Positions 4,953 to 31,884 of a stretch of DNA of 64,000 nt are shown here, piece after piece; position 1 is the first letter of the stretch; the number at the start of each line of letters is the position of its first letter. A program made the translations under genes and the position numbers. The stretch lies in IMG/VR virus record IMGVR_UViG_3300042868_009434, one strand, 5' to 3'. Under the pieces are notes generated by a model. It was not told the origin of the DNA. It ran no database searches and saw only the letters and a program-made list of their open reading frames with translations. This DNA comes from a virus. Its lineage: Duplodnaviria > Heunggongvirae > Uroviricota > Caudoviricetes.

Positions 4953-6815
4953 TTAGGAATTTAGTAACTTATCCAATTCTTTTGAAATTTCTCCTAAAGA
5001 ATCTTGACCATGACCTAAATTAATCATTTGAGCACCATCAATTAGGTTATTTTCAACTAACATATTTAAGTTATTCATTCGTGATTCCGGAGTTATTTCA
5101 GCCTCACCTCCCGCCGGTGGTGGTGCAACAGTTTCCTCACCCGCTGGCGGTAATTCTTCTCCTCCACCTAAATCAGCGGTTTCAAATCCACCTCCTCCAA
5201 ATGATGTCTCCGGTTCTGATGTTTCAGTCGCAGTTGCAGACGCGGTTCCTCCTGAAGTATTACCATAAAGTTTATCAATATTATCAAATAAACCTGTTTT
5301 AGTTATAACAGTCGCAGTTGCTTTAAGTTCTTCACCAACAGCTCTTTCAATTCTTTGTTGTTGTAAATCTAAACGAACCTCTTCGTCAGACCATCCAAAT
5401 ATGTGTTTCTTAGCCCATGTTGATGATGTTGCTTGAATACCATTTCCTGGGTCGGAAACTAAATCTTTGTATAATAAAACTTTTTCTTTCCAAACATCAA
5501 TTTTTAATAAATCTGCCTGTGTTGAAGGGTTTGATAAACCTAATGTAAAATTATCTAATTCATCTTCGAATCCAAGTAAAAATAAATGTACAATTGCAAT
5601 TTTATTTAATTCCGCAACCATACTTTTTTGAATTCTATTGATAGTTCTTGCAAAACGAATATCTTGTAATGATAAATTTTTACCATCTCCAACTACTTCT
5701 TCAAATCCTAAGAACGCCTTAGGAACACGAAGAGCGGTTAATAATTTCTTTTGGATGTATTCAATATCCGCAATCTCTGAAAGGTTTGTTGCTCCCGGTA
5801 ATGTTGTGATAGGGTCCGGTGCTGATGGGTCTCTAACAGGAATGAAATAATCTTGGTCAACCGCCATTTGATTAAACCTCATATCTACGTTACCTGTTTT
5901 ATTATCAACTACTTGTTCTCTTTTGAATTTGTTCGCAACACGTTGTACATACGCCTCAACATCATCATCGTTCATATTACCTACGAATACTTTAAACATT
6001 CTTCTCTCAGGTGCTCTTGATGTACGATAAATCAACATCGCATCCTCAGATAATAATAATTGTTTCCAAATACGTCTTGCTTTTTCTAACATAGACGTAC
6101 CATAAGGAAGTTTTCGGTCGTCCCCTAATAATCTAAAGTGACCAATCTCCCATGATTGAAATTCCATGTTTTTATTCTTCCAAGTAAAATGAAGTGATTT
6201 TTTATCTTTATCCATTTCCTTAGTAATATCTGTTGAGATTTTTGCACTAACACCTACTTCATGACGTTCAATTTCAATGGTAGGTAATTGTTGTACACCA
6301 ACAATACCCTTTTCAGGGTCTAATTTTAAATAAATAAAGTTATCACCATACTTACAAGTGTTTCTTGTCCACATTGGTAAGTTAGTGTTAATATCAAGTG
6401 AGTTATTAAATAAATCTGCTAATACTCCTTTTATTCTTTTTGATTCAGAATAAATTTGTAAAATAAAACCATCTTCATTTGTTGTTGTTGATTCTTCTGC
6501 GTAGATATCTAACGCAGCTGAAATCTCAGGAGTATACTCCATTGACTCGTAATCATATTGTGCGGATAATCTGGATGGTTCGTAATAGATTGCTTGTGAA
6601 TATAAATTATTCTCAACTTTCGCCCATTGGTTTGTTAAGTAAAAGGTTTGTTGTGCCTGTAACTTCTCTTTTTCGTATTCTTCCTTACTTTTGGTACGTA
6701 ATAATTCCTTCTTATCAAACTTAAATGTTGGATAATCTTGGTTTAATAGAGAATTTGGTCCAAATGTTTGGGACAATCTCTGCCATACCGTCATATTATT
6801 TTGTTGTTCACTCAT
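4953..6815 (-). CDS. Portal vertex protein, gp20-like
   Basis: 620 aa, immediately downstream of the large terminase in the same orientation. Size and position fit T4 gp20. Confidence 0.6.
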   Translation of the reverse strand: MSEQQNNMTVWQRLSQTFGPNSLLNQDYPTFKFDKKELLRTKSKEEYEKEKLQAQQTFYLTNQWAKVENNLYSQAIYYEPSRLSAQYDYESMEYTPEISAALDIYAEESTTTNEDGFILQIYSESKRIKGVLADLFNNSLDINTNLPMWTRNTCKYGDNFIYLKLDPEKGIVGVQQLPTIEIERHEVGVSAKISTDITKEMDKDKKSLHFTWKNKNMEFQSWEIGHFRLLGDDRKLPYGTSMLEKARRIWKQLLLSEDAMLIYRTSRAPERRMFKVFVGNMNDDDVEAYVQRVANKFKREQVVDNKTGNVDMRFNQMAVDQDYFIPVRDPSAPDPITTLPGATNLSEIADIEYIQKKLLTALRVPKAFLGFEEVVGDGKNLSLQDIRFARTINRIQKSMVAELNKIAIVHLFLLGFEDELDNFTLGLSNPSTQADLLKIDVWKEKVLLYKDLVSDPGNGIQATSSTWAKKHIFGWSDEEVRLDLQQQRIERAVGEELKATATVITKTGLFDNIDKLYGNTSGGTASATATETSEPETSFGGGGFETADLGGGEELPPAGEETVAPPPAGGEAEITPESRMNNLNMLVENNLIDGAQMINLGHGQDSLGEISKELDKLLNS

Positions 6816-6854: not shown

Positions 6855-8615
6855 TTACCCACCAAATAACCACCCATACTTTTGGTAATCTTCTCTAGTC
6901 GCCCCTTGGTTTATTGGATTTTGTCTACCCATTTGAGGTACCATTGGATTAAAAAACTCAGACGCGTTTTTATTTTCATTTACCGCAGTAGACCAAGAAT
7001 TTAACATTGCTCTGGTATGGTTGGTAACTTTTTCTAATGATTGGAATGATTTTTCTGCAACATATATTGCCATTGCAATACTCATAATACAGTCGTCATG
7101 ATGCATCTTTTGATGGTCAGGTCGTCCATTAATGTAAACAAACGTATTCATTTCGTTATAAAGACGACTTGAATAAATTCTAAACTTATGTCTCATCGCT
7201 TCTTCAAACGCAGCAATAATCTGAACTCTTTTTGAATTAAAGTTAATTCCCGGAATTTTTTCATTTATTTTTGGGTCATACTTCCACTTATTGGTTGTAT
7301 CAACACCATCAACATATAATCCACCCTGATAATTCATTTCTTGTAATTTTCTTGCGGTTGAAACTCCCATACCACCAGTAATATCCACAACACAATAAGC
7401 ATTATACATAGTACCCCACTTATATGCAATCTCCGCTAAAATGTCCGGAGGGACTTTTCCAACATATTCTAACACCTGTTCTCTAGTATCAAAATCAATA
7501 ATCTCAACACTTGAAAAATCTTCGGAATCCCCACGAGATACATCACAACCCATAACATATTTGTGTTCATTTACAGGTTCTTTCCATATCCATAAACCAC
7601 CACCCATCATTTTAGCCATTGGTTCTTTAACTTGATTTTTGGCAATGTCTTGCATCAAATCAGAATCAAATACGTTATCTCCGGAACCTAAGAAGTTACA
7701 TTCTAACTCTTGAGCAACCTTACGTCTATCATATTTCAATTTTTTTACCATTCCTTCAAACCAGGCAGAACATGGTTTGTATCCATCTTCAATATATTTG
7801 GTTACAATTGAATGGTCTCTCTCAAATGGATTGGACATTGATAAGTCAATAATAACATCATCAAGGTTATATTCTTCTCTATTTAATAAAAAGTGAACTA
7901 AATCGTGTGTTTTAACCATATACAAATCTTTTGTATATCGAGGGTCACGGTACCAAAACATTTCAGAAATTTTGAAGTCATTCATATTTCTAAGTGACTG
8001 GTCATAAATTTCATAATAAATTGCGTCATAACCATTTGGTGTGGAAACTACAATTACTTTACCCCCCGTAGATAGGGATGCCATACACGCTGACCAAAAA
8101 TCTCCGTCAGCCTCGATAAACGCCGCCTCATCAAAGATAAGAATGGTTGGGGTATAACCCCTCAATGCATCTCGAGAAGTTGCAACTGCCTTAACCTCAC
8201 ACCCATTTGTTAGTTTGAAATGTCGTTGTGCATTTTTTTCATTAGAAAAACCGACACCAACCCAACTAGGCCATTGTTCGGTAAAACTTCTAATCTTATT
8301 TGCCATCTCCATGGACGTATCCAATTTATTGGCAATGATTAGAATTTTTTCAGGCTTAGTTTTTTTTGCAAATACAAGTTTTTTGGACGCCCAAGCTGCT
8401 GTCACAGTAGATACACCTGCCTGTCTGTACTTAAGGGCAATATTCTCATTATATTTGTCGTAATCCTCAATCAAGGATACTTGGTCGGGGAATAAATCTA
8501 ACGGTACGTATTTTGATACCGTATTATCGTATGTCTGTAAATAAGTACGAAGTGCGTAGGGTGTATTCCTCATGCACTTCGTTATCTCAATTATTAATTG
8601 TTCTTTATTATTCAA
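6855..8615 (-). CDS. Terminase large subunit, gp17-like
   Basis: A Walker A-like segment YRQAGVSTVTAAW and a Walker B segment TILIFDEAAF are present. The C-terminal RNase-H-like nuclease motif MGCDVSRGDSEDFS is present. The ORF-track start is TTG; the first ATG is at codon 15. Confidence 0.85.
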   Translation of the reverse strand: MNNKEQLIIEITKCMRNTPYALRTYLQTYDNTVSKYVPLDLFPDQVSLIEDYDKYNENIALKYRQAGVSTVTAAWASKKLVFAKKTKPEKILIIANKLDTSMEMANKIRSFTEQWPSWVGVGFSNEKNAQRHFKLTNGCEVKAVATSRDALRGYTPTILIFDEAAFIEADGDFWSACMASLSTGGKVIVVSTPNGYDAIYYEIYDQSLRNMNDFKISEMFWYRDPRYTKDLYMVKTHDLVHFLLNREEYNLDDVIIDLSMSNPFERDHSIVTKYIEDGYKPCSAWFEGMVKKLKYDRRKVAQELECNFLGSGDNVFDSDLMQDIAKNQVKEPMAKMMGGGLWIWKEPVNEHKYVMGCDVSRGDSEDFSSVEIIDFDTREQVLEYVGKVPPDILAEIAYKWGTMYNAYCVVDITGGMGVSTARKLQEMNYQGGLYVDGVDTTNKWKYDPKINEKIPGINFNSKRVQIIAAFEEAMRHKFRIYSSRLYNEMNTFVYINGRPDHQKMHHDDCIMSIAMAIYVAEKSFQSLEKVTNHTRAMLNSWSTAVNENKNASEFFNPMVPQMGRQNPINQGATREDYQKYGWLFGG

Positions 8616-8628
8616 AAGTCATTTTTGG

Positions 8629-9927
8629 TTATTTAGGTCTCGATATACCCAAACTACCCAAGAAATCATCTAATCCGTCGTCTTCGTCTTCATCAGAATC
8701 AATCCCTTCTTCTTCTTTGTAATCTTCAAACTCCTCTTTCATTTTGATAGCCTCTCTCATAATTTCATCAAATTTTGAGGTTGCTTTCGCCACTTTTGAA
8801 GAATCTTCAGAGATTGCGTTTCCGATAATTTCTAAAAACTCTTGGGCTTCAATTTGGTATAACAAAGTATGAAACCAGTTTATCAAACCTTTGTTCTCAG
8901 GTTCGTACATTTTATCAGGTAATGCAAACCTTATTCTTTCCACGATTTCCGGACCTATTCTCAACTGCATTGGTTCATTACTTAATGTATCAGTTTGTCC
9001 CATAACTCGTTGAGCCATCTCAGGGTCTTTAGGTAATCCGTGTCTACCTTTCGCCTCTTCTAATCCTTTGATTATTTCATGACATAAAATTGGGAAGATT
9101 AAACCAAACGCTTTTATCACTGTGTCCGGAGTTTCTTCTCCTTCTTCTCCTTCTTCACCCTCTTCGTCATTATCATCTAATTCAACTTTTCCCGCAATTC
9201 CTTGACCTGTTTGACTCATCATTTCAATCATTTGTTCCATACTAAAGTATAAGAAATCATTAATTGCCATAATACCTAAGTAATCACCATAAAGAGATGG
9301 GTCAATTTCGTCAAGTCTTGCTTTAATATCCGGTTTTTGAAAAATATAATGACCTTTTTTCGCAGCACCCTGAATAATTGCATTAATTATGTTTCTTTTA
9401 TGTTTTTCTAATTCAAAAATTTCGTCCTCAGTTAAATCCTCAATATCAAAAGACGGAATTTCCATTTCTTCTTCCTCATCTTCTTCCTCTTCATCATCCT
9501 CTTCTTCAGGTTTCATTCTAAAGTTAGACGTATCAATCGGTTCTCTATTTAAATAAGCTTCAATTTTATACCAATCAACAGGTACTTCAGATTCCTCTAA
9601 CGCCGCCTCAATTGCTAATTCTTCAAGTTCATCCCTATGTGCCGCCTCAATTCTCATGATGTTAGGTAATTTTCTCATCATCTCTTGGTATATCATACCT
9701 TGAGTTTGTTGAGAACTTAAATTTTGAATACCTGTAACATCACTTAATTTTTCAGCAACTTTTTGAAATCGATTACTAACTAATCTTTGAACGTCACCCT
9801 CTTTCTTTTTCATTGCGGGATTCTGAGCATATAAACTTTCAGGACTTGCAAGTTTTCTTTCCAAATTTGGGTCCATTCTTTCAGGTCTATCCCCGTAATC
9901 TAATTGTTCTTTAATTTTCTTTGCCAT
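8629..9927 (-). CDS. Hypothetical acidic protein, 432 aa; small-terminase position but atypical size
   Basis: ORF directly upstream of the large terminase gene with poly-E/D tracts. Confidence 0.45.
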   Translation of the reverse strand: MAKKIKEQLDYGDRPERMDPNLERKLASPESLYAQNPAMKKKEGDVQRLVSNRFQKVAEKLSDVTGIQNLSSQQTQGMIYQEMMRKLPNIMRIEAAHRDELEELAIEAALEESEVPVDWYKIEAYLNREPIDTSNFRMKPEEEDDEEEEDEEEEMEIPSFDIEDLTEDEIFELEKHKRNIINAIIQGAAKKGHYIFQKPDIKARLDEIDPSLYGDYLGIMAINDFLYFSMEQMIEMMSQTGQGIAGKVELDDNDEEGEEGEEGEETPDTVIKAFGLIFPILCHEIIKGLEEAKGRHGLPKDPEMAQRVMGQTDTLSNEPMQLRIGPEIVERIRFALPDKMYEPENKGLINWFHTLLYQIEAQEFLEIIGNAISEDSSKVAKATSKFDEIMREAIKMKEEFEDYKEEEGIDSDEDEDDGLDDFLGSLGISRPK

Positions 9928-14369: not shown

Positions 14370-14658
14370 CGCTTAGTGGTGTTAGTTCGTTTATGTTTTT
14401 TAAAATAGGTTTCAAATATTCATTAAAATCCTCTTTTTCTACCTCAAAACCTAAGTCCTTCATCTGTTGAAGTAAATCTCTTATTTCACCACCAAATTTT
14501 TCATGAAGTGTCATTAATTGTGCCGAGTAATATGGTGGCCTTTCTAAATCCTTTTCACTCCACCCTTCTGATTGGAAATATTGTCTTATCTTAAGATATA
14601 TTTCAATTATGCGTTGTAACCCAACACTACTAACTAAAAAATTTTCAAATGGTCTCAT
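14326..14658 (-). CDS. Hypothetical protein, 110 aa
   Basis: ORF only. Confidence 0.35.
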   Translation of the reverse strand: MRPFENFLVSSVGLQRIIEIYLKIRQYFQSEGWSEKDLERPPYYSAQLMTLHEKFGGEIRDLLQQMKDLGFEVEKEDFNEYLKPILKNINELTPLSDGDYERGNQGDEDY

Positions 14659-14674
14659 ACTTATAAATATAACT

Positions 14675-15244
14675 ATGGACGTAACTGAAACATTTATTAA
14701 GCACGGAGATTACAATGTCGAGAATATTTTAAAAATAATTAAAGACAATAATTTGGATTGGGATGAATTCACCGATAGACAAAAAAGGTATAATTCTGAA
14801 CACGTCCACACAAAAACAATTCCAATAATTTTTGATAAGTCATTTAATTTTAACCATTTAAAAATAATCCCAACTACTCATTACCCTTTATTTAAAGAAG
14901 AGATTACCAAAATTGAGGATATTATTAAACTCAATACCGGAGAAAATGGCAGAATTATGAGGGCTTTATTAGTTAAGTTAACTGCCGGAGAATCCATCAG
15001 ACCTCATGTTGATATTGTAGGATTTAGTTTGGTTATTTGCCGAAGAATCCACATACCAATTCAAACAAATGAAGATTGTTTTTTTACGGTAGGTGATGAT
15101 AAAAGAAATCTAAAATTAGGTGAGCTATGGGAAATTAACAACGACAAACAAAAACACTCTGTTGATAATTTTGGGGAAACCGATAGAATACATTTAATTG
15201 TTGATTGGATTGAAGAATCTTTATTTGAATCATATGGTATCTAA
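14675..15244 (+). CDS. Aspartyl/asparaginyl beta-hydroxylase-like 2OG-Fe(II) oxygenase (cupin)
   Basis: Candidate iron-binding motifs are RPHVD and RIHIPIQ/RIHLIVD. The start is taken at the internal Met MDVTETF. Confidence 0.5.
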   Translation: MDVTETFIKHGDYNVENILKIIKDNNLDWDEFTDRQKRYNSEHVHTKTIPIIFDKSFNFNHLKIIPTTHYPLFKEEITKIEDIIKLNTGENGRIMRALLVKLTAGESIRPHVDIVGFSLVICRRIHIPIQTNEDCFFTVGDDKRNLKLGELWEINNDKQKHSVDNFGETDRIHLIVDWIEESLFESYGI

Positions 15245-15911
15245 AACACAAAAAATAATATTTTTATATCCTCCAAAAACAGCATCTAATTCTTTACGTG
15301 TTAGTTTAAATAATAATGGGTTTATTGAAGACACACAAAATGACACATATCTTACACCAAAACTTCACTTAAAATTAGATGAAATTATGGTTGCCTATGA
15401 TATCGAGTCTCTTGACGGATATAAAGTTATACAAGTAACTAGAAATCCTTATGATAGAATGATATCCGGATATTACCATCAAATTAGGATTTTTAATCGA
15501 CCTGACTTTGAATCAAGTGCTTCGATTAGTGGATACACATTTGACCAATTTTTACTTCATTTAAACTCAACAAAAAATTCTGAAAATTTTATTGATGATT
15601 TTTATTGTGATTCATCTCATCACATCAACTATGTTATTGAAAATAAAAAATCATGGGGAGGAATTCGATTTTACTACACTCAAAGTAGTTGGAAAAACGT
15701 AGATTGTGATTTTTATCATTTTAAGTTAGAGGATTTAAGTAAAGACATCAAACCGTTAAGTGATTTAATCAACTTACCTTTGTCCCCCTTATATCAAATT
15801 AACCCTAACCCTATAAAGGTTAATTATGAAACCCACAAAACACCTCAAAATAAATTAATCATTCAAAATTTATTTTCAGAAGATTTCGATACTTTTGGAT
15901 ATGAAAAATAA
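15234..15911 (+). CDS. PAPS-dependent sulfotransferase-like protein
   Basis: A 5-prime PSB motif YPPKTASNSL and a 3-prime PB motif VTRNPYDRMISGY (RxPxxRxxS) are present. The start overlaps the previous stop (ATGGTATCTAA). Confidence 0.55.
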   Translation: MVSKTQKIIFLYPPKTASNSLRVSLNNNGFIEDTQNDTYLTPKLHLKLDEIMVAYDIESLDGYKVIQVTRNPYDRMISGYYHQIRIFNRPDFESSASISGYTFDQFLLHLNSTKNSENFIDDFYCDSSHHINYVIENKKSWGGIRFYYTQSSWKNVDCDFYHFKLEDLSKDIKPLSDLINLPLSPLYQINPNPIKVNYETHKTPQNKLIIQNLFSEDFDTFGYEK

Positions 15912-15942
15912 AACCCCACCTAATGGGCGGGGTTTCTTTTTA
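15911..15942. terminator. Bidirectional rho-independent terminator hairpin
   Basis: The hairpin aaccccacctaatgggcggggtt is followed by a T-run. It lies between convergent genes. Confidence 0.55.
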
Positions 15943-16317
15943 CTTCTTTAATTTCTTTAATTCATCACGAATTTCAATTGACCTTTCAAAATTATGGTCC
16001 TTAATTGTTTGTTTCAACTCTTCTTCAAGTTTCGTAATGGTTTCTTGATTAAGTTCCATTTTTTTAATTTGGTCTCTAATTTCAACCGCTTTTTCAAAGT
16101 CTTCATTTTCGATTGCCAACTCAAGTTGTCGTTTTAAACCATTTGCACCTTTATGTGTCTTTGGTTCATTACTTCTATAATAAGTAGTAACTTTCATAGT
16201 ACCATCTTCAGATACTTTAGTTTGTGATTTCCATTCCCCTAAACGAGAATCGAACTGAGCGAACATATCATCAAACGCTCTTAAAATGTCATTAAAGTTT
16301 TTTTCGTTTCCAAACAT
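15940..16317 (-). CDS. UVR (UvrB/UvrC-motif) domain protein with two UVR motifs
   Basis: The motifs EDFEKAVEIRDQIKKME and ERSIEIRDELKKLKK are present. The gene is divergent from the ClpC-like gene. Confidence 0.55.
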   Translation of the reverse strand: MFGNEKNFNDILRAFDDMFAQFDSRLGEWKSQTKVSEDGTMKVTTYYRSNEPKTHKGANGLKRQLELAIENEDFEKAVEIRDQIKKMELNQETITKLEEELKQTIKDHNFERSIEIRDELKKLKK

Positions 16318-16489
16318 AATTTTATTTTTTTATTCAGATTTATTTTTATACCTTTGTACTATTCAAATAATATACCATTCGAATAAATATGTCAATATGT
16401 CAGGTTAAAAAAAATTTACTGACAATTTGTCGAAAAATTAGGATAAGAATAAAATTTGATGGACCTTTGTAAAATAAAATTAGAAAACT

Positions 16490-18505
16490 ATGAACGACTT
16501 AATGGACGAAAACGACAAATCAGGTAACAGAGCTCAAAAACAAGCTATGGACACAAATACTCCTGTATTAGACAATTTCAGTAGAGATTTAAACAAACTA
16601 GCGGAGGCAGGTAAATTAGACCCTGTAATTGGTAGAGATGCCGAGATTTTGAGAATCGCACAAATCCTTTCTCGTAGAAAAAAGAATAACCCTATTATCA
16701 TAGGTGAGCCCGGGTGTGGTAAAACTGCACTTGTTGAGGGTCTTGCCATGAAAATCGTAAGTGGAGAATGCCCAAGAAACTTAGTGGACAAAAGAATCGT
16801 GAACCTTGATTTAACTTCAGTTGTTGCAGGTACCAAGTATCGTGGACAATTCGAAGAAAGAATGAAAGTGATTATTGAAGAACTAAGTGCAAATCCAAAC
16901 ATCATCGTGTTTATTGATGAGATTCATACATTAGTTGGTTCAGGTAATTCATCAGGTTCAATGGATGGTTCAAACATCTTCAAACCAGCACTTGCTCGTG
17001 GTGAGGTTCAATGTATTGGAGCAACAACTCTTGATGAGTTCCGTAAGAACATTGAAAAAGACGGAGCATTGGAAAGAAGATTCCAAAAAGTAGTTGTGGA
17101 ACCATCAACAGTTGAGGAAACAATCGAAATCCTTAAAAATGTTCGTGATAAATACGAATCATACCACAAGGTATTGTACAGTGACGAAGTTGTTGAAACT
17201 TGTGTTAAATTGGCGGACCGTTATATTACCGACCGTGAGTTTCCGGATAAAGCGTTTGATATCTTAGATGAGGTTGGGGCTCGTATGCAAACCGAGATTA
17301 AAGTTCCTGAAGTTATTGAGGAATTGAAAAAGAAAGCTGCGGAGATTAAAATTGAGAAAATGGAAGTAGTTAAAAAACAAAACTACGAACAAGCGGCCCA
17401 ACTTAGAGATAAGGAGAAAAAATTGTTAATCAAACTTGAGGCGGAAAAAGAGAAGTTTTCAAAACAAATGGATTTGGAAAAACAAACTATTGTTCTTGAA
17501 ACTGTTTATCAAGTTGTATCAAGTATGACTAAGATTCCTGTGAATAAAATGGACGCAGATGACTCTAAAGCATTGATGAATTTAGATAAATCAATCATGG
17601 GTAAAGTAATTGGTCAAGACGCGGCTGTTGTTAAGATTGCTAAATCAATCAAGAGAAACCGTTTAGGTATCAAAGACCCTAACAGACCTATTGGTTCATT
17701 TATCTTCTTAGGTTCAACCGGAGTGGGTAAAACTCACTTGGCAAAACAATTGGCTAAAGAGATGTTTGGAACTGAAGATTCACTTATCCGTGTGGATATG
17801 TCAGAATACCAAGAGAAACACTCAATCTCTAAATTGGTTGGAGCACCTCCGGGATATGTTGGGTATGAAGAAGGTGGATTATTAACTGAGAAAGTTAAAA
17901 ACAAACCATATTCTGTTATCTTATTTGATGAGGTGGAGAAAGCTCACAAAGATGTCTTCACGGTTTTACTTCAAATCTTGGATGATGGATTTGTAACCGA
18001 TAGTTTAGGTAGAAAGATTAACTTCAAGAATACCTTGATTATCTTAACCTCTAACTTGGGTGTTAAGAAATTACAAGACTTCGGTACTGGTATTGGTTTC
18101 TCAAATAACTCATACGCAGATGAGGAGGCGAAAAAACAAATCTTGATGAAAGAAATGAAAAACTTCTTCTCTCCGGAGTTTATTAACCGTATTGACGACA
18201 CTATTGTCTTCAATTCATTATCTCCTGAAGATATTGAAAAAATTACAGAGATTGAGTTAAAGAAATTAATGACTCGTCTTGGTGATATGAAATACACAGT
18301 AACCTACAATGATGAAGTAGTAAAATACTTGGCTAAGATTGGGTTCGATGAAGTGTACGGAGCAAGACCATTGAAGAGAGCAATCCAAGATAAGATTGAG
18401 GATTTGTTATCTGAAGAAGTGTTAACCGGTAAAATGATTGAAGGTAAATCTTACCAAATTAAAATGGATGGAGAGGATATCAAAATCACTAAAAAAGGTA
18501 GATAA
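16490..18505 (+). CDS. clpC: ClpC/ClpA-type AAA+ unfoldase with two nucleotide-binding domains and no N-domain
   Basis: D1 Walker A is GEPGCGKTA and D2 Walker A is GSTGVGKTH. The UVR-like middle domain reads YEQAAQLRDKEKKL. Candidate ClpP-docking loops are GTGIGFS and the GARPLKR sensor. Confidence 0.85.
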   Translation: MNDLMDENDKSGNRAQKQAMDTNTPVLDNFSRDLNKLAEAGKLDPVIGRDAEILRIAQILSRRKKNNPIIIGEPGCGKTALVEGLAMKIVSGECPRNLVDKRIVNLDLTSVVAGTKYRGQFEERMKVIIEELSANPNIIVFIDEIHTLVGSGNSSGSMDGSNIFKPALARGEVQCIGATTLDEFRKNIEKDGALERRFQKVVVEPSTVEETIEILKNVRDKYESYHKVLYSDEVVETCVKLADRYITDREFPDKAFDILDEVGARMQTEIKVPEVIEELKKKAAEIKIEKMEVVKKQNYEQAAQLRDKEKKLLIKLEAEKEKFSKQMDLEKQTIVLETVYQVVSSMTKIPVNKMDADDSKALMNLDKSIMGKVIGQDAAVVKIAKSIKRNRLGIKDPNRPIGSFIFLGSTGVGKTHLAKQLAKEMFGTEDSLIRVDMSEYQEKHSISKLVGAPPGYVGYEEGGLLTEKVKNKPYSVILFDEVEKAHKDVFTVLLQILDDGFVTDSLGRKINFKNTLIILTSNLGVKKLQDFGTGIGFSNNSYADEEAKKQILMKEMKNFFSPEFINRIDDTIVFNSLSPEDIEKITEIELKKLMTRLGDMKYTVTYNDEVVKYLAKIGFDEVYGARPLKRAIQDKIEDLLSEEVLTGKMIEGKSYQIKMDGEDIKITKKGR

Positions 18506-18510
18506 TAAGG

Positions 18511-18538
18511 AAGGGGATGAAAATCCCCTTTTTTTTTG
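18511..18538 (+). terminator. Rho-independent terminator after the ClpC-like gene
   Basis: The hairpin aggggatgaaaatcccct is followed by T9. Confidence 0.6.
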
Positions 18539-18558
18539 TTTTATAAATAGAGCATAAA

Positions 18559-18584
18559 AAAAGAGACCAAATGGTCTCTTTTAT
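18559..18584 (-). terminator. Terminator hairpin for the minus-strand peptidase gene
   Basis: The hairpin aagagaccaaatggtctctt is flanked by an A-run and a T-run. Confidence 0.5.
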
Positions 18585-18587
18585 ATT

Positions 18588-19430
18588 TTAGAAGAATCTG
18601 TGATTATATCTTGGAATCTCAACCACTTCTTTGTAGTGTAATTTATTTCCAAGTTTTTCAATCATTTGTCTTCCCATCTCAATTCCTTTAAAAACATCCT
18701 CAATCACCACATATTCGTTTGGTGTGTGATAATCGTAGTACCCAATTGAAAAGTTAATACAAGAAAAACTGAATTTACTTCTCAACGCGTAAACGTCAGT
18801 GTATGGGTGAACCATATATTGCATATCTTCGTTATGCATCCCTTCGGTTAATACTTGGTCACAAACCTCAAAGAACTCAGACTCCCTATCAAACAAATCT
18901 TGACTGAAACATTTCTCAGTAATCATCCAGTTCTCAGGGGCATCAAATTGAATACCATAACCAACATTGGTGAAAAATTCAGGGTCAGCCTTTTTGGAAC
19001 CGTGACATCCTGTTTCTTCAGATACGAAAAATGCAGCTTTTAAGTTTGGAACTTCTTTAAGTAATTTTAAACAAGCAAAAACACCACACTTATCATCACC
19101 ACCGATTCCGGTTGGTAATCCGTTTAAGTTGTAAGCCTTTAATGCGTCTTTAATCTCACCTTGAGCGTTTGGTAATTGTTCTTCATGAACAATAATTGTA
19201 TCTAATCGGTGAACCGTATCGGTATGAGCAATAACACATGGGAAATAAAAATCTTCAGGAAGTGTTTCAAATTCTTTTTTTGTTGCATAAACATTTTTGT
19301 GTTCATCAACGTAATGTTCTATGTTGTTTTCGGTCAACCAATTCTGTAAAAACTCGACCATAAGGTCTTCTTGATAAGTTACGGTTGGAACACTAAGAAC
19401 TTCTTTTAATAATAATATATCGTTTGTCAT
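18588..19430 (-). CDS. M20/M28/M42-family metallopeptidase-like protein
   Basis: Motifs HTDTVH, GGDDKCG and SEETGCHG resemble the metal-ligand motifs of aminopeptidases. Confidence 0.5.
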   Translation of the reverse strand: MTNDILLLKEVLSVPTVTYQEDLMVEFLQNWLTENNIEHYVDEHKNVYATKKEFETLPEDFYFPCVIAHTDTVHRLDTIIVHEEQLPNAQGEIKDALKAYNLNGLPTGIGGDDKCGVFACLKLLKEVPNLKAAFFVSEETGCHGSKKADPEFFTNVGYGIQFDAPENWMITEKCFSQDLFDRESEFFEVCDQVLTEGMHNEDMQYMVHPYTDVYALRSKFSFSCINFSIGYYDYHTPNEYVVIEDVFKGIEMGRQMIEKLGNKLHYKEVVEIPRYNHRFF

Positions 19431-19447: not shown

Positions 19448-20584
19448 TTAATTCATATTTTCATAATCATCTAAAGAATATTGATATAAAAAATTGTTAA
19501 ATTGTTCTTCATCTAATCTAAGTTGTTTAAATAACCCATTATCTTTAGTTTTAACATTTAACCTAACAGACATACTACCAACATCAAATGAGTCAATTAG
19601 AAAAATAATATTATCATCTTTAGGATTAGTATACCAAGTTTTTAATTTATATTTTGATGTAACTCGGTCTCTAAATTCGACAAAATCTTGAACAGTATAT
19701 CCTTCATCACTTCTCTCATCCAATTTTTCTAATATTTTTTCAAATTGATGAGATACGTAATTATTAAATGACTTTGAATCAAATTTACTCTCATCTTGGA
19801 ACTCGTAACTATTTTCATACCAACCCCCAACATTACTACCTAACGCCTTTTGCATCATTGCCACAATAATTTCTTTGGCGTCTGAGTTAAACATATTCAA
19901 TTGTAATGCCCCAAGATATAAATCTGCCAAGGTAATCTCAACTTCATCCATATCATAGTTAAGGTTAATACCGTTTTCTTCCAATGGTTTTTCAAATTCG
20001 TCTTTTACCGCCTCTTTTGCAACCGCATTCATTTCACTGTCTTTTTCAGCCGCAAAATCCCCAAAAATGTAATCCATTTCATCATAGAATAAATTAAGTA
20101 ACATTTCAGATAACTCTGTTTTATATTCTTCATCCTCAATATTAAATTCCTTATTCGGCAAAATTGTGGTTGCAATACCTTTAAGTGTTTTTACATTTTC
20201 ATCATTTAAATCATAATATATTCCATACCCATCTTTAAAATCCTGTTCCACCTGATACGAATCCATAAATTCATAACCATTATACGAATTAAGGGCTCCC
20301 ATAAACCAAATGTCCTGCTCATCAATATCCAATTCTTTAAACAATTCTTTATCATCCTCAAATTGAATTGTAATAATTGATTGTCCCAAAGGTTCGTTTA
20401 CATCAATATCATATATGCTATCGTCAAGACGATATAACTCATCTTTACTGATTCTACCTTTAGAAAAGTTTCTAAGACCCACAACTAAATTTTTATCCGG
20501 TTCTTCCTCAGATTCTTGTTCGGTCTGTAATACCCTCTTAACAATACGATTAAGTTCAGATTCGGTTAATTTTATTACCTTCAT
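19448..20584 (-). CDS. Hypothetical acidic protein (ORF extends to 20671; preferred start MKVIKL at 20584)
   Basis: Long ORF. Choosing the internal Met avoids overlap with the tmRNA 5-prime end. Confidence 0.45.
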   Translation of the reverse strand: MKVIKLTESELNRIVKRVLQTEQESEEEPDKNLVVGLRNFSKGRISKDELYRLDDSIYDIDVNEPLGQSIITIQFEDDKELFKELDIDEQDIWFMGALNSYNGYEFMDSYQVEQDFKDGYGIYYDLNDENVKTLKGIATTILPNKEFNIEDEEYKTELSEMLLNLFYDEMDYIFGDFAAEKDSEMNAVAKEAVKDEFEKPLEENGINLNYDMDEVEITLADLYLGALQLNMFNSDAKEIIVAMMQKALGSNVGGWYENSYEFQDESKFDSKSFNNYVSHQFEKILEKLDERSDEGYTVQDFVEFRDRVTSKYKLKTWYTNPKDDNIIFLIDSFDVGSMSVRLNVKTKDNGLFKQLRLDEEQFNNFLYQYSLDDYENMN

Positions 20585-20660: not shown

Positions 20661-21057
20661 GGGAGTGACATGGAATTGACTATTCGTAATAGTTATTCGG
20701 GGCACGTAGTGAGAAGTTTCCTATCACTTAAATCTATGGATGACAAACTTTTAGACGGAAACGTTTTAGACAAACTTTCAGCTGTTGGATTTATCCGCAC
20801 TGAAGAAGTTGCTGTAGCCTAATCGGAAACACAACACGGGGTCGGTGGTCAGATAACCTTGCAACAGAAGACTTTACAAAGGTGTGGTTTCTACCCGAAA
20901 AGAAACAAGTGGAGGATTAGTTCTCAGTAAACCGAACCACTTTAAAAATAAGGGAATTGTGAAATTTCGGATTGTTAGCTTAAACAATGACCTAAACGTG
21001 TAGTCCTTAATAGGTAATACAAGTAACACCGGAGTTCGAGTCTCCGCACTTCCACCA
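20661..21057 (+). ncRNA. ssrA: tmRNA (SsrA), phage-encoded
   Basis: The 5-prime end GGGAGUG-ACAUGGAAUUGAC parallels E. coli GGGGCUG-AUUCUGGAUUCGAC. The 3-prime T-arm cggagttcgagtctccg is followed by acceptor strand cacttcc, which pairs with gggagtg, and then ACCA. An internal tag frame ends ...TEEVAVA-TAA (gct gta gcc taa). Confidence 0.75.
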
Positions 21058-21061: not shown

Positions 21062-21090
21062 AAAACCCATCGTAATGATGGGTTTTTTTA
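21062..21090 (+). terminator. Terminator hairpin after the tmRNA (repeated element)
   Basis: aaacccatcgtaatgatgggttt followed by T7. A near-identical copy occurs at 28035. Confidence 0.6.
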
Positions 21091-29358: not shown

Positions 29359-29399
29359 TAACAAATTCAAAAAATATCAATTAAATACAAAAAAAATTG

Positions 29400-29474
29400 T
29401 GTCCTCGGCAGGCATCGAACCTGCATATCTCTCGGTTATGAGCCGAGCGCCTTCACCAATTTAGCTACAAGGAC
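29400..29474 (-). tRNA. tRNA-Met/Ile2 (anticodon CAT)
   Basis: Hand-folded: acceptor gtccttg/cgaggac, anticodon loop ctCATaa, T-arm gcaggttcgatgcctgc. Confidence 0.55.
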
Positions 29475-29564
29475 AAAAATTAGGTTTTGGTGTAAACACC
29501 CTACATGACTTTAACCTAAAAAGTACACTGAGTAATTTAAAACCCCCAGCGGTTTAATTGTGAC

Positions 29565-29792
29565 CTATTGGTGGTTCTTAATGTACCTACCAAATTTATC
29601 CACCCTCACAGAGAGTTTCTCCAATCTAAAGTTCCATTGTTTGAACTTTCCTAAGCCGGTTCTTAACCTTGCTTGTTTAATTGCAGATTCCTCTGCCTTT
29701 TCACGTCCTTCTTCTGTGGTTTCCACAAAAAAAGTGGGAGCCTGAACACCGTTTCTAACGGGAACTACTCTCCAAATTCTCAATTTCTGAGT
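29565..29792 (-). CDS. Hypothetical small basic protein
   Basis: ORF MTQKLRIWRVVPVRNG...; a weak S21-like pattern was not accepted. Confidence 0.25.
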   Translation of the reverse strand, partial: TQKLRIWRVVPVRNGVQAPTFFVETTEEGREKAEESAIKQARLRTGLGKFKQWNFRLEKLSVRVDKFGRYIKNHQ

Positions 29793-29985
29793 CATAATAC
29801 TTGAACTAATCAAGTACTACGAGGAGTTGGGTTTTTGGTTTTTCATATTGATAATTTACACATTTTCTAATTAAAAGAAATATCAAACATTTGGTGGTCT
29901 ATCACCTCACATTTTCAACGGGTCCAATTTTATGTGTGCCTCACGGGTTTACTTCTGCAATGTCGCTTTAATGTTTGGTATTTTG

Positions 29986-30065
29986 TATCCCCGGTGAGAG
30001 TCGAACTCACATGCCTGAGCAACAAGTCTTAAGCCTGTCGTGTATACCAGTTTCACCACGGGGAT
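29986..30065 (-). tRNA. tRNA-Leu (anticodon TAA), type II
   Basis: Acceptor atccccg/cggggat, anticodon arm acagg-cttaaga-cttgt, long variable arm, T-arm gtgagttcgactctcac. Confidence 0.6.
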
Positions 30066-30071
30066 ATTTTG

Positions 30072-30154
30072 AGCTTCCGATTGGATTCGAACCAACGTGA
30101 CCTTTCGGTTCCTGATTACAAATCAGGTGCAATCAACCTCTATGCGACGGAAGC
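30072..30154 (-). tRNA. Atypical type-II tRNA; anticodon loop uuUGUaa (nominal UGU/Thr) with a 14-nt variable arm
   Basis: Acceptor gcttccg/cggaagc, 3-bp D-stem, anticodon stem cctga/tcagg, T-arm gttggttcgaatccaat. Confidence 0.4.
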
Positions 30155-30421
30155 CTGTTTACATTATCACTTCGGCCACATTGGGAGAACCGCAGTTCCC
30201 ACGTTGTTTAAGGAGGTAGTTGGCGGTGTATCACACCGAGTTATGATAATGTATATTTTTACACATCCCTCAAGATGGGGATAACATTGCCCAGAGTACG
30301 ACCTCACAGACTATTATCATACTCAACAAACATAACACTTCTTGTAGTGTTGTAATGAATTTTTTTTCCCCTGTGTTCAATACACCGAATTACTTGTTTG
30401 CCTTTCTATGTGTAAATTTTG

Positions 30422-30496
30422 TACCCACGGTGAGAGTCGAACTCACAAAATCTTCTGAGCCTAAATCAGACGGCTTTCCCGTTTGCCCACGAGGGT
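30422..30496 (-). tRNA. Atypical tRNA-like gene, anticodon UAG with G37 and a short variable arm; shares its T-arm with tRNA-Leu(TAA)
   Basis: Acceptor accctcg/cgtgggt with one U-U mismatch, anticodon arm tctga-tttaggc-tcaga, T-arm gtgagttcgactctcac. Confidence 0.35.
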
Positions 30497-30498
30497 AA

Positions 30499-31167
30499 TT
30501 ATTTTTTTTCGTATGACTTAATCCATTTACGAATTGAATTGTCTGACACACCATATTTTCTACCTGTACCAACATAACCTAATTCACTAATCTCTTTGAT
30601 TAAAACATTATAATCAGGTCGACTAATTTTTTTAGATTTTTCAAATTTACAATCTAAACAAGTTATTGCCTTATCAGAAATTAAATTACCACAATCACAT
30701 TTTTTTGTTTTTTTTATTATAATTTCTTTAACATTTTTTCTACCTGAATAATTATCGGTAATTGAATGACAATTTGGACATAATATTTGTAAATTATTTA
30801 ATTGATTATTAAATCTATTTCCGTCTATATGATGTAATTCTAATGATATTTTATTTTCTAACCATTTATCTAACCCACAATTTTCACATCTATGTTCTTT
30901 AATCCCATCCTCAATTAATTTAACCCTTAATTTGTGTGAATTTATACTATCACAACTTTCAATGTAATCTAAAGCGGTTCTTCGTTTAGAATCTGTTTTT
31001 TTACCTCTTAATCCTTGATTTCCCGAATAATCTATTTCTAACTTTTTCAAATAACTCTCTAAAGTAGATGGTCGACAATTTAATACCTTACATATTGACG
31101 ATTTTGATTCGTTATTTTGAATCATAGTGATAATGTGTTCTTTTTTTTCTAATATGTCTATTCTCAT
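30499..31167 (-). CDS. HNH homing endonuclease
   Basis: The HNH segment CENCGLDKW...LHHIDGN...NLQILCPNCHS is present, along with additional Cys pairs, a zinc ribbon and an HTH-like C-terminus. It lies within the tRNA island. Confidence 0.8.
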   Translation of the reverse strand: MRIDILEKKEHIITMIQNNESKSSICKVLNCRPSTLESYLKKLEIDYSGNQGLRGKKTDSKRRTALDYIESCDSINSHKLRVKLIEDGIKEHRCENCGLDKWLENKISLELHHIDGNRFNNQLNNLQILCPNCHSITDNYSGRKNVKEIIIKKTKKCDCGNLISDKAITCLDCKFEKSKKISRPDYNVLIKEISELGYVGTGRKYGVSDNSIRKWIKSYEKK

Positions 31168-31239
31168 AATACTTTCTTTATATTATAAATATAACATACT
31201 TGTTAAAAAACTAAACAACAAGTATAACATTTTTATTTG

Positions 31240-31311
31240 TACCCTCAATAGGACTCGAACCTATATCAAAACATTAGAAGTGTCTTATTCTATCCCTTGA
31301 ACTATGAAGGC
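31240..31311 (-). tRNA. tRNA-Arg (anticodon TCT)
   Basis: Anticodon arm agaca-cttctaa-tgttt, T-arm ataggttcgagtcctat, acceptor gccttca/tgagggt with G-U pairs. Confidence 0.55.
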
Positions 31312-31318
31312 GGTTTGG

Positions 31319-31390
31319 AGCAGATAGAGAGAATCGAACTCTCGTTTCAAGATTGGAAGTCTGGAGTAATAACCATTATACGATATCTGC
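31319..31390 (-). tRNA. tRNA-Gly (anticodon TCC)
   Basis: Acceptor gcagata/tatctgc, anticodon loop cttccaa, T-arm gagagttcgattctctc. Confidence 0.55.
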
Positions 31391-31470
31391 AGATTTGGGT
31401 AGAATCAGACGCGTTCTGTCTACCGGGACCTCGTCGTTGACTTTCATCAGAGCGGACCAAGACACATTTG
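31391..31470. other. Unresolved 80-nt structured spacer between tRNA-Gly and tRNA-Met
   Basis: Contains the hairpin ggtaga..tctacc and CUGAUGA-like and gcggacc segments. No tRNA fold was found by eye. Confidence 0.2.
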
Positions 31471-31542
31471 TAGCGGGAGAAGGATTCGAACCTCCGACCT
31501 AGAGGTTATGAGCCTCCCGAGCTACCTCTGCTCTATCCCGCA
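31471..31542 (-). tRNA. tRNA-Met (anticodon CAT), second copy; U1-U72 mismatch suggests a possible initiator
   Basis: D-arm gagc-agaggta-gctc, anticodon arm ggagg-ctcataa-cctct, T-arm ggaggttcgaatccttc. Confidence 0.55.
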
Positions 31543-31548
31543 ATTTGT

Positions 31549-31618
31549 TGCAAATCTCAGGAATTGAACCTGATTAAGTCGGCTTATGAGACCGATGAGA
31601 TACCTTACCTCCCGACTG
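31549..31618 (-). pseudogene. tRNA-like element with a CAT anticodon arm and an intact T-arm but a non-pairing acceptor stem
   Basis: D-arm gag..ctc, anticodon arm tcggt-ctcataa-gccga and T-arm tcaggttcaattcctga are present. The acceptor 5-prime strand cagtcgg does not pair with the 3-prime strand gatttgc. Confidence 0.3.
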
Positions 31619-31632
31619 CTGTGTATTATTTA

Positions 31633-31707
31633 TGGCGGTCTATGAGAGAATCGAACTCTCATCTCTACCGTGACAGGGTAGCATCCTAGCCGTTGAACGA
31701 ATAGACC
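31633..31707 (-). tRNA. tRNA-Asp (anticodon GTC) with encoded CCA
   Basis: Acceptor ggtctat/atagacc-g-CCA, anticodon arm ctacc-ctgtcac-ggtag, T-arm gagagttcgattctctc. Confidence 0.7.
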
Positions 31708-31878: not shown

Positions 31879-31884
31879 TTCTTG

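Follow-up and report, generated by a model that had tools for sequence, protein, structure and literature searches.

A phage-encoded ClpC-type unfoldase without an N-domain, an unlinked ClpP and an exchangeable UVR accessory gene in a T4-like jumbo phage

The window analyzed here is a 64,000-nucleotide stretch of a tailed phage (IMG/VR record IMGVR_UViG_3300042868_009434). It carries a T4-type portal, a large terminase and an S77 prohead protease as phage identity markers, and a gp23-type capsid gene is also present on the same contig. The source is a T4-like jumbo phage of ~300 kb that infects freshwater Bacteroidota; in the accessible parts of published surveys, freshwater jumbo-phage groups likewise have predicted Bacteroidota hosts. 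The coordinates of the four ORFs named in a preliminary description of this DNA (an unfoldase, a UVR gene, a peptidase and ClpP) were reproduced exactly, and at the level of sequence the family matches of the four proteins represent strong homology, with chance excluded.

The clpC gene (16490-18505, plus strand) encodes a ClpC-type double-ring AAA+ unfoldase of 671 aa, as identified with Pfam and by alignment to solved ClpCs. Pfam found AAA, AAA_lid_9, AAA_2 and ClpB_D2-small domains in the 671-aa protein, plus a weak UVR match to its middle domain; a Clp_N domain was not detected. The best solved relatives are the ClpCs of S. aureus (740 bits) and B. subtilis (713 bits), and the protein scores under the NCBIfam equivalog cut-offs. 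Since phage residues 11-665 align with ClpC residues 147-802, only the N-domain is missing, and the earlier reading of the protein as an N-domain-less ClpC-like unfoldase with two Walker A sites and a single UVR-type middle domain is borne out. All catalytic, pore and sensor motifs of AAA+ proteins are present, including Walker A (aa 72-79 and 408-415), Walker B (aa 139-146 and 476-485) and the pore loops KYR (aa 116-118) and GYVG (aa 455-458). The UVR-type motif EQAAQLRD (aa 300-307) lies in the M-domain tip QNYEQAAQLRD (aa 297-307; 17378-17410, plus strand), which was delimited by alignment and conservation. In the alignment, Y299, R306 and D307 correspond to F436, R443 and D444 of S. aureus ClpC, which make head-to-head contacts in the resting state (PMC5699869). 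The candidate ClpP-docking loop GIGF in D2 (aa 534-537; 18089-18100, plus strand), already pointed out in the preliminary description, aligns on the 'VGF' stretch of B. subtilis ClpC. G[IVL]GF occurs in every full-length family member among the matches listed. Some 100 full-length loci, with identities of 66-99%, all share this loop motif, the N-less length and an aromatic M-domain tip.

The nearest cellular ClpCs (80 homologues, median length 849 aa) belong to Bacteroidota and are 55-60% identical to the phage protein. Approximately 160 extra N-terminal residues are present in 79 of these 80, and the remaining locus is cut at a contig end. The M-domain tip (QKYEEAAKLRD) and docking loop (GVGF) of Bacteroidota ClpC closely resemble those of the phage. 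Most likely, the phage ClpC descends from a Bacteroidota ClpC and then lost the N-domain. It shares with the ClpCs of S. aureus and B. subtilis the double AAA+ ring, the D2 loop for ClpP docking and a short M-domain of UVR type whose tip combines an aromatic residue with Arg and Asp, and it is ~50% identical to solved ClpCs across the full alignment; it differs in being phage-encoded and in the absence of the N-domain and of MecA- or McsB-type partners. Because the N-domain is lost, adaptors and substrates that depend on it would be unusable. The same domain architecture was engineered in S. aureus as deltaN-ClpC and deltaN-ClpC-F436A (Carroni 2017; Jenne 2025). S. aureus deltaN-ClpC is proteolytically silent, and combining deltaN with an M-domain tip mutation gives adaptor-free GFP-SsrA degradation and greater toxicity (PMC12583610; PMC5699869). 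Control in these constructs is therefore by M-domain contacts only and, once they are released, SsrA-tagged substrates are degraded without an adaptor. By analogy, the phage ClpC would be gated only via head-to-head contacts of its UVR-type M-domains. The S. aureus constructs are laboratory truncations, whereas the phage ClpC occurs naturally, retains an aromatic tip residue (Tyr) and is accompanied by a candidate trans-acting UVR protein.

This protein of 125 aa is encoded divergently from clpC (15940-16317, minus strand) by a gene with a promoter-like site and a terminator-like hairpin (15936-15910, minus strand) of its own. Pfam detected two UVR domains at 50.1 bits, well above the cut-off of 21.5, in agreement with the two UVR motifs described before. 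These motifs read EDFEKAVEIRD (aa 72-82) and HNFERSIEIRD (aa 108-118). The family comprises 870 proteins, with lengths of 123-171 aa for all of the 120 listed, and both F/Y...RD motifs are invariant or near-invariant down to 31% identity. The predicted structure consists of an N-terminal helix, a beta-hairpin and two UVR helical hairpins; the model is of moderate quality (pLDDT 70), and fold searches with it gave no specific match. The JGI pipeline names the protein McsA, and the preliminary description compared it with McsA-type ClpC regulators, by which reading it would activate a protein-arginine kinase that marks ClpC substrates. McsA shares one UVR-like helical stretch with the phage protein, which has two UVR motifs instead of one and scores 42 bits against a McsA family cut-off of 210. 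It contains no cysteines and thus no zinc fingers, the genes called in 1-53.8 kb include none resembling McsB, and the donor lineage is Bacteroidota rather than Firmicutes. In addition, phospho-arginine binds the ClpC N-domain (PMC12583610), which the phage ClpC has lost. An McsA-type function is thus effectively refuted, with next to no probability left to it.

The F-x6-R-D signature present twice in the UVR protein also forms the M-domain tip of ClpC. The UVR protein most likely docks on the ClpC M-domains via hairpin-to-hairpin pairing, which would either open the resting state (as an activator) or deliver clients (as an adaptor). Conservation of the signature is not specific for M-domain binding, because it is structurally conserved in all UVR domains.

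The UVR and clpC genes are separated by a divergent control region (16318-16489). It contains two near-palindromes, TGACA-N3-TGTCA, 30 bp apart (16390-16402 and 16420-16432), a sigma-70-like TTGACA-17-TATTAT sequence on the minus strand (16395-16367) and a TAnnTTTG-like box, ACCTTTGT (16463-16470), 20 nt upstream of the clpC ATG. Across ~60 related loci, the exact palindrome occurs once or twice per locus and only in this intergenic region. The gene slot upstream of clpC is occupied by a UVR gene in 39 of 76 loci and by an HSP20 gene (Pfam 6.8e-13) in 18, with neither in the other 19. The palindrome is common to UVR and HSP20 loci and, by inspection by eye, is absent from most of the empty-slot loci. 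The two slot types interleave on the ClpC tree; the contents of the slot have been swapped repeatedly. Since in sister phages its place is taken by a small heat-shock protein or left empty, the UVR protein is an exchangeable accessory and not a core subunit, nor is it the dedicated partner proposed earlier. In about one relative in four the slot holds neither gene, so ClpC can do without both of them.

UVR domains are the modules through which UvrB and UvrC interact. The UVR protein could thus be unrelated to ClpC and target other UVR proteins, for example by sequestering host UvrB/UvrC and blocking excision repair, as its weak NCBIfam matches to the C-terminal regions of UvrB and UvrC and its separate promoter-like site and terminator would allow. 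However, in each of the 39 loci the UVR gene is the divergent neighbor of clpC and was not found elsewhere in the 10-kb flanks, and it shares this slot and the unique palindrome with heat-shock protein genes. We consider a role apart from ClpC improbable.

ClpP (S14 peptidase; 43043-43789, plus strand; PF00574, 172 bits) is a protein of 248 aa with N- and C-terminal extensions, encoded ~26 kb from clpC. The preliminary description of a distant but catalytically intact ClpP was accurate: the Ser129, His154 and Asp203 segments align with solved ClpPs, and this triad does not vary among 60 distinct relatives. Conservation is also high in the N-terminal loop region. Secondary matches to ClpP-like head maturation proteases (PHROG 4.2e-33; NCBIfam 1.5e-16) raise the possibility that the protein matures the capsid instead of serving ClpC. 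However, true ClpP models score 227 bits against 61 for head-protease models, the clpP neighbors are carbamoyltransferase genes and ORFs of no assigned function with no head genes among them, and the head module already has a gp21-type S77 prohead protease (2898-3614). ClpP was therefore rejected as the head protease, a reading that is extremely unlikely, and the role in morphogenesis suggested earlier is unlikely as well.

A survey of relatives for the ClpC, ClpP and UVR trio supported part of it: ClpP is on the clpC contig in 10 related contigs, 19-32 kb away and with both slot types covered, but UVR is not obligatory and alternates with HSP20. The distant 634-kb (LR745206) and 642-kb (LR756502) phages also have both an N-less ClpC and ClpP. 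Because clpP lies 26 kb off and diverges faster (~60% identity where ClpC has ~85%), they may not work exclusively with each other. This separation would fit a ClpC that is mainly a ClpP-free unfoldase or disaggregase, aiding folding and assembly of a very large virion or solubility of the infected cell's proteome with UVR or HSP20 proteins as co-chaperones. The 18 HSP20 slots, a DnaK gene in the slot of locus L077 and, at the downstream end of locus L055, part of a DnaK-like gene are consistent with this, as is the chaperone set (ClpA-like ATPase, DnaK, DnaJ, HSP20) in the accessible parts of related-phage surveys (PMC12619734; PMC9723584). Against it, the candidate docking loop is universal among the listed full-length members, the best matches are to ClpC and not ClpB, the M-domain is short as in ClpC rather than long as in ClpB, and intact ClpP accompanies clpC in the 10 contigs. 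A role mainly without ClpP is therefore unlikely, though it keeps appreciable weight. The different rates and lack of linkage would also fit pairing with host proteins, in which phage ClpC docks on host ClpP and redirects host proteolysis, and phage ClpP mixes into host ClpP rings or serves host ClpX or ClpC; the Bacteroidota-like M-domain tip and docking loop agree with this, as does the fact that 80 clpP loci yielded no ClpX up to 6 kb away. However, the family as a whole and the distant 630-kb phages keep ClpC and ClpP together, and phage ClpP is 39% identical to the one Bacteroidota ClpP compared and has terminal extensions of its own, which makes host pairing quite unlikely.

Convergent to clpC lies a lid-less, PepT-like M20 (MH-clan) metallopeptidase gene (18588-19430, minus strand; 280 aa), separated from it by terminator-like hairpins (18507-18534, plus strand; 18559-18582, scoring on both strands). 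The match to Pfam M20 is just short of its cut-off (24.4 vs 24.6 bits) and that to M42 is weak. PHROG gives a 'peptidase' match (1.6e-32), and the predicted fold resembles PepT, the catalytic domain of DapE and the TET aminopeptidases of family M42, in line with the earlier M20/M42-like assignment. The putative metal and catalytic residues (H69, D71, D112, E138, E139, D163 and H235) are invariant in 85 sequences, and overall conservation equals that of ClpC. The peptidase adjoins clpC in 75 of 80 ClpC-seeded loci, with four of the five exceptions cut off shortly after clpC; the family is also found in small phages (42-73 kb) for which no ClpC is known. The peptidase gene apparently shares a transcript with a conserved ORF of no assigned function (19448-20584, minus strand), which starts MKVIKLTESELNRIVKRVL and matched nothing in Pfam, PHROG or PADLOC. 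Its length of 378 aa follows the start used by the JGI gene callers (M codon at ~20584-20582), and the mechanical ORF extends to 20671.

Next to this ORF is a tmRNA gene (20661-21057, plus strand) that was identified by Rfam RF00023 at 69 bits, above its cut-off of 47, and was not detected by ARAGORN. It has a G3:U70 acceptor pair, a tag frame that resumes at GGA (20757), encodes GNVLDKLSAVGFIRTEEVAVA and stops at TAA (20820-20822), and a terminator-like hairpin behind it (21062-21086). A tmRNA lies 2.2-4.3 kb past clpC in 12 of 12 relatives tested (13 of 13 with the window), one of them intron-split, and the tag peptide is conserved. Relatives whose ClpC is as little as 66% identical still keep the order ClpC, M20 peptidase, 378-aa ORF and tmRNA. 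Synteny inside a single phage family is weak evidence of a functional link, and because the tmRNA abuts tRNA genes in several relatives, it may belong to a translation island and not to the Clp cluster. The preliminary description had mentioned neither this conserved tmRNA nor the palindromic control element nor the Bacteroidota origin of ClpC.

Taken together, these results suggest that the phage most likely runs its own ClpCP protease, with an M-domain gate modulated by an exchangeable accessory protein. Once active, the N-less ClpC would take substrates via its pore, probably unfolded proteins and polypeptides to which the phage tmRNA, encoded 2 kb downstream, has attached its C-terminal ...VAVA tag; cutting these clients to peptides would fall to ClpP, and the lid-less M20 enzyme may trim the peptides to amino acids. 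For this explanation as a whole, comprising a ClpC-ClpP protease, UVR accessory, tmRNA-tagged clients and M20 trimming, we see the chances as evenly balanced. The small phage protein Gp53, proposed to modulate ClpC activity in infection, resembles the candidate UVR modulator, but its target is the host ClpC; in the present phage, both the ClpC and a candidate modulator built of UVR hairpins are phage-encoded. To our knowledge, Gp53 has no UVR motifs.

Clp components have been reported from other phages. As far as the accessible parts of these accounts go, jumbo phages encode ClpP, ClpA, ClpX and ClpS (Iyer 2021), phage G has ClpXP and a tmRNA, Atu_ph07 has seven Clp-like genes, 'Clp protease and chaperones' are noted in bS21 phages, and 'ClpA' and 'putative peptidase' are moraphage core genes. 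These sets also combine an unfoldase with ClpP, to which a tmRNA and HSP20, DnaK or DnaJ are frequent additions; the same parts of the accounts hold no mention of N-domain loss, a double-UVR partner, UVR/HSP20 alternation, the palindromic element or clpC-M20-tmRNA synteny. Host-independent regulated proteolysis by the phage, as proposed in the preliminary description, remains a reasonable inference, and while phage Clp genes were known before, the architecture of this locus is new and testable.

The clpC gene of the window (16490-18505, + strand) encodes a protein of 671 aa in which Pfam recognizes AAA, AAA_lid_9, AAA_2 and ClpB_D2-small domains, and its closest solved relatives are ClpC of S. 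aureus (740 bits) and ClpC of B. subtilis (713 bits). As in the ClpC subfamily, both AAA+ modules are complete, with Walker A at residues 72-79 and 408-415, Walker B at 139-146 and 476-485, the pore loops KYR and GYVG, the sensor motifs (sensor-2 as GAR) and the arginine-finger motifs. The middle domain (M-domain) is a short single coiled coil with the UVR signature of the subfamily and scores 19.5 bits against Pfam UVR, marginally below the cut-off; its tip, QNYEQAAQLRD (297-307), aligns with the S. aureus ClpC segment that holds F436, R443 and D444. In the second AAA+ module (D2), GIGF (534-537) aligns with the 'VGF' stretch of B. subtilis ClpC, known as the ClpP-docking loop ([LIV]-G-[FL]). 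The motif, proposed as a candidate docking loop in the preliminary description, is present in every full-length family member listed. PADLOC returned nothing more than an unspecific AAA+ resemblance to DolB and PDC-M37B.

The phage protein lacks one defining ClpC feature, the N-terminal Clp_N repeat domain, which is the binding site of adaptors and of phospho-arginine. Pfam found no Clp_N match in the 671 aa, and the protein begins at the linker between the N-domain and the first AAA+ module (D1). Since residues 11-665 align with residues 147-802 of cellular ClpC, the N-domain is the sole missing part. The gap upstream of clpC is only 172 bp, and cellular relatives carry about 160 residues more. 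Among the called genes of window positions 1-53.8 kb there was no separate Clp_N gene, and no ClpX, ClpS or SmpB. The N-domain-less ClpC-like unfoldase that the preliminary description had proposed was thus borne out by the full AAA+ motif set, the UVR-type M-domain and the missing Clp_N, and its coordinates for the four ORFs were all correct.

More than 590 relatives turned up in the database scan, and about 100 related jumbo-phage loci were examined. In these roughly 100 full-length phage loci, at 66-99% identity, the protein is 664-719 aa long and keeps the aromatic tip residue and G[IVL]GF. The 80 nearest cellular ClpCs (55-60% identity) are all from Bacteroidota, chiefly Flavobacteriaceae, and share the phage-type tip (Q-K-Y-E-E-A-A-K-L-R-D) and a docking loop GVGF. 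About 160 extra N-terminal residues are seen in 79 of these 80 cellular homologues, whose median length is 849 aa, and the 80th locus ends at a contig edge. Judged from these alignments, the N-less state of the phage ClpC is derived and stable. An architecture starting at D1 was found in about a dozen of the best 150 representative clusters, which makes it uncommon but not unique. Two uncultured phages of 634 kb (LR745206; locus L280, 3884-5989) and 642 kb (LR756502; locus L281, 3923-6046) also encode N-less ClpCs, of 701 and 707 aa, with ClpP elsewhere in the genome; neither LR745206.1 nor LR756502.1 has a UVR or HSP20 gene beside clpC.

Divergent from clpC lies a gene (15940-16317, - strand) for a protein of 125 aa with two Pfam UVR motifs, as the preliminary description had claimed. 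Its two stretches score 50.1 bits in total against PF02151 (cut-off 21.5), and structure prediction places helices at 58-70, 74-106 and 110-124, forming two hairpins with the [FY]-E-x-A-x-x-[LI]-R-D signature of UVR domains. The analogy to McsA-type ClpC regulators holds for the UVR motifs and fails for McsA membership. The McsA zinc-finger region (paired CxxC) is absent, with no cysteine in the 125 aa, and the match to the McsA model NF053706 (NCBIfam) spans only the UVR-like part and reaches 42.3 bits against a cut-off of 210, which all but rules out McsA itself. A McsB guanidino-kinase gene was also absent from the genes called in window positions 1-53.8 kb, as judged by their precomputed Pfam assignments. 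The family of the UVR protein has 870 members; the 120 listed are 123-171 aa long, each on a metagenomic or phage contig, and pipelines label these proteins 'McsA' or 'UvrB'. Just upstream of the UVR gene are Asp/Asn beta-hydroxylase-like and sulfotransferase-like genes (14609-15911), a variable insertion that many relatives lack.

The gene position directly upstream of clpC (the slot) is not always filled by a UVR gene. In profile searches of 76 related loci with upstream sequence, the slot holds a double-UVR gene in 39, an HSP20 gene (Pfam 6.8e-13) in 18 and neither in 19. In sister phages (loci L002, L003, L006, L011, L015, L021 and others; about 9350-9830, - strand), the small heat-shock gene HSP20 sits exactly where the UVR gene would be, with equal spacing, and the two genes never occur together in the flanks of any locus. 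L077, one of the 19 loci with neither gene, has a DnaK gene immediately upstream of clpC (8402-9829), and a DnaK-like fragment is found at the downstream end of L055. One explanation, that the UVR and HSP20 slot proteins are diverged homologues, was ruled out by profile-profile comparison, in which a 10-residue N-terminal match was the only similarity (probability 4%); the two are therefore not detectably homologous, which argues for replacement rather than divergence. In an approximate neighbour-joining tree of ClpC, the two slot types are interleaved, which indicates repeated replacement: the UVR clade of the window sits within a clade of HSP20 loci, and the HSP20 locus L061 has the UVR locus L074 as its sister. 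No correlation was seen between slot type and M-domain tip sequence across the ClpC loci.

UVR and HSP20 loci have in common an exact palindrome, TGACA-N3-TGTCA, which is found in about 60 loci in one or two copies, 30-43 bp apart, and is confined to the intergenic region between the slot gene and clpC. Copies lie at 9856-9868 and 9886-9898 in L013, and at 16390-16402 and 16420-16432 in the window, where each has one mismatch. Empty-slot loci mostly lack the palindrome, as seen by eye in their upstream sequences. The palindrome may serve as an operator, or it may consist of two -35-like hexamers facing opposite ways. The alternative of a shared host clpC operator was ruled out with the upstream regions of 79 Bacteroidota clpC genes, which hold only 7 one-mismatch sites at scattered positions. 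Nor is it a genome-wide motif, since the window contains 5 sites with at most one mismatch against 3.2 expected. The same palindrome also occurs inside the clpP coding sequence, at a fixed position about 200 nt in, in loci L161, L162, L171, L174 and L179, where it may be a coincidence kept by homology.

Downstream of clpC, the gene at 18588-19430 (- strand) encodes a protein of 280 aa that falls marginally short of the Pfam M20 cut-off (24.4 vs 24.6 bits), is marginal for M42 as well, and has a PHROG hit to the family 'peptidase' (1.6e-32). Its GDDK, EE and H-T-x-x-E segments align with PepT (3gb0), and H69, D71, D112, E138, E139, D163 and H235 show no variation across 85 sequences; by likeness to PepT, we presume that these are the putative metal ligands and the catalytic Glu. 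An AlphaFold2 model of high predicted quality (a pTM well toward the top of its scale) matched PepT (1vix, 4e-10), TET aminopeptidases of family M42 and the catalytic domain alone of DapE (TM 0.64) in Foldseek. PepT carries an inserted lid/dimerisation domain of about 166 residues, whereas the phage protein has about 59 residues in its place and is therefore lid-less. The adjacent M20/M42-like peptidase that had been suggested is thus confirmed by family match, alignment and predicted fold, in a lid-less form.

The order of slot gene (- strand, where present), clpC (+), M20 gene (-) and an ORF of no assigned function (-) was constant when the proteins of the window were compared by tblastn with 113 related loci, and was kept down to 66% ClpC identity. 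The M20 protein is conserved nearly as well as ClpC (47-99% identity), and terminator-like hairpins flank each transcription unit of the neighbourhood. The last ORF, of 378 aa, has the N-terminal motif (K/R)-(L/I)-T-E-x-(D/E)-L-x-(K/R)-(I/L)-V-K-R-V (20584-20528, - strand), which also heads otherwise unrelated upstream ORFs in loci L032, L042, L060 and L072 and may be a leader or targeting peptide.

A tmRNA gene was detected at 20661-21057 (+ strand) by the full-length Rfam model RF00023 (69 bits against a cut-off of 47), while ARAGORN missed it in the window. It has a tRNA-like end with G3:U70 and a 21-codon tag frame that ends in TAA. The encoded tag, GNVLDKLSAVGFIRTEEVAVA, is unusually long at 21 residues and ends in ...VAVA. 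In all 12 relatives tested, the tmRNA lies 2.2-4.3 kb past clpC, and the tag peptide keeps the pattern GN(V/T)..K..A.GL..E...V.VA. A group I intron (RF00028, 75 bits, 15130-15346) interrupts the tmRNA of one of these relatives, locus L040 (14751-15353), close to the 3' tRNA-like end. About 2 kb past the tmRNA, three loci carry a GOLLD RNA (RF02032, 298-325 bits; L047 17079-17490, L053 16365-16758, L075 16126-16531 on the - strand), which is absent from the window.

ClpP is encoded at 43043-43789 (+ strand) as a protein of 248 aa (PF00574) that scores 172.3 bits against Pfam CLP_protease (cut-off 20.2) and 227.5 bits against the NCBIfam equivalog (cut-off 361), and is therefore a divergent member. 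Its triad residues Ser129, His154 and Asp203 lie in canonical segments aligned with solved ClpPs and are invariant in 60 sequences, which upholds the claim of a catalytically intact enzyme. No clpP was found within 10 kb of clpC; in 10 cases, with both slot types included, the two genes are 19-32 kb apart on the same contig. A motif search of 80 loci found no ClpX-like ATPase within 6 kb of clpP, and ClpP diverges faster than ClpC (about 60% identity where ClpC has about 85%). The head module contains a gp21-type prohead protease (2898-3614, - strand; Peptidase_S77, 1.7e-21), and thus the capsid protease is separate from ClpP. Just upstream of clpP are two tandem carbamoyltransferase genes (39137-42394), a variable insertion missing in many relatives.

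The S77 protease gene lies beside those for a T4-type portal (4953-6815) and the large terminase (6855-8615), and a gp23-type capsid gene follows further along the same contig. The region near the head module has no gene for ribosomal protein bS21, by which the phage could have been assigned to the bS21 phages of the literature. Megablast of the first 25 kb of the window gave no match to deposited phages, and IMG/VR holds several hundred relatives on contigs of up to 309-326 kb. An array of 26-28 tRNA genes (29399-36206, - strand) covers most amino acids and includes an HNH endonuclease ORF (32876-33382). The GC content of the window is about 32%. A TAnnTTTG-type box, TACCTTTG, is over-represented, with copies immediately before clpC, the tmRNA, the tRNA array and further genes; a box of this type is the Bacteroidota -7 promoter element. 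In the form ACCTTTGT it occurs at 13 sites against 3.6 expected in the window (16463, 20640, 36254 (-), 32172 (-), 54731 and others), and it probably represents the kind of promoter that works in the Bacteroidota host. An ATTAGGA element was seen upstream of some ACCTTTGT sites.

Two published surveys describe jumbo phages of comparable size from fresh water, for which Bacteroidota are the predicted hosts, and mention Clp genes in passing, naming between them 'Clp protease' or 'ClpA', 'putative peptidase' and chaperones (PMC9723584; PMC12619734). Jumbo phages have been reported to encode ClpP, ClpA, ClpX, ClpS, HSP20 and tmRNA; the sections consulted of published accounts make no mention of systematic N-domain loss, of a UVR-only neighbour, of a UVR/HSP20 swap under a shared palindrome or of clpC-M20-tmRNA synteny. 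A phage adaptor that acts on host ClpC, Gp53 of SPO1, is already known. In S. aureus ClpC, the tip residues F436, R443 and D444 keep the inactive head-to-head resting state (PMC5699869). Removal of the S. aureus N-domain (deltaN-ClpC) raises the ATPase and gives no proteolysis, while deltaN-ClpC with a tip mutation degrades GFP-SsrA at the rate of wild type activated by an adaptor, with greater toxicity; the pore, not the N-domain, reads the SsrA tag (PMC12583610). The phage ClpC is the natural counterpart of the deltaN construct, with the tip kept (Y299, R306, D307).

The UVR protein presents two copies of the F...RD signature, as at the ClpC M-domain tip, on predicted helical hairpins. Our best reading has four steps: the UVR protein would pair with the M-domains and modulate the gate, by activation or by repression; the ClpC unfoldase, once released, would feed ClpP; clients recognized at the pore would include products tagged by the phage tmRNA; and the M20 peptidase may complete their breakdown. 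A bolder combined reading, in which the UVR protein mimics the tip and unlocks N-less ClpC by capping its M-domains, ClpC and ClpP then selectively destroy phage-tmRNA-tagged chains and the lid-less peptidase recycles the products into amino acids, is an improbable one in our judgement. For the four-step reading, synteny inside one phage family is weak evidence, and since all UVR domains keep the signature residues, their conservation does not point to M-domain binding in particular. Against this reading also stand the quarter of relatives without either slot gene, the tmRNA beside tRNA genes in several relatives, the presence of the M20 family in phages of Cellulophaga, Klebsiella and Brevibacillus (42-73 kb) for which no ClpC is known, and a clpP that is unlinked to clpC and evolves faster.

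If the combined reading were true, these phages would have a self-contained viral pathway of tagging, unfolding, degradation and recycling with a dedicated palindromic operator, and HSP20 of the sister phages would be an alternative feed into the same machine. If the link is synteny alone, this is merely another phage with Clp genes. There is current interest in how the N- and M-domains control ClpC activity, as a target for drugs and because deregulation is toxic, and here a laboratory-type deltaN construct has been made by nature and kept in all of the approximately 100 jumbo-phage loci examined, with a candidate trans-acting M-domain ligand. Should the UVR protein prove to be an M-domain ligand, it would represent a new class of ClpC adaptors or activators that act by UVR-UVR pairing, and would offer a simple tool for switching ClpC on. 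Taken together, the tmRNA, the peptidase, the HSP20/UVR swap and the private candidate operator suggest that large Bacteroidota phages run their own protein quality control and amino-acid recycling.
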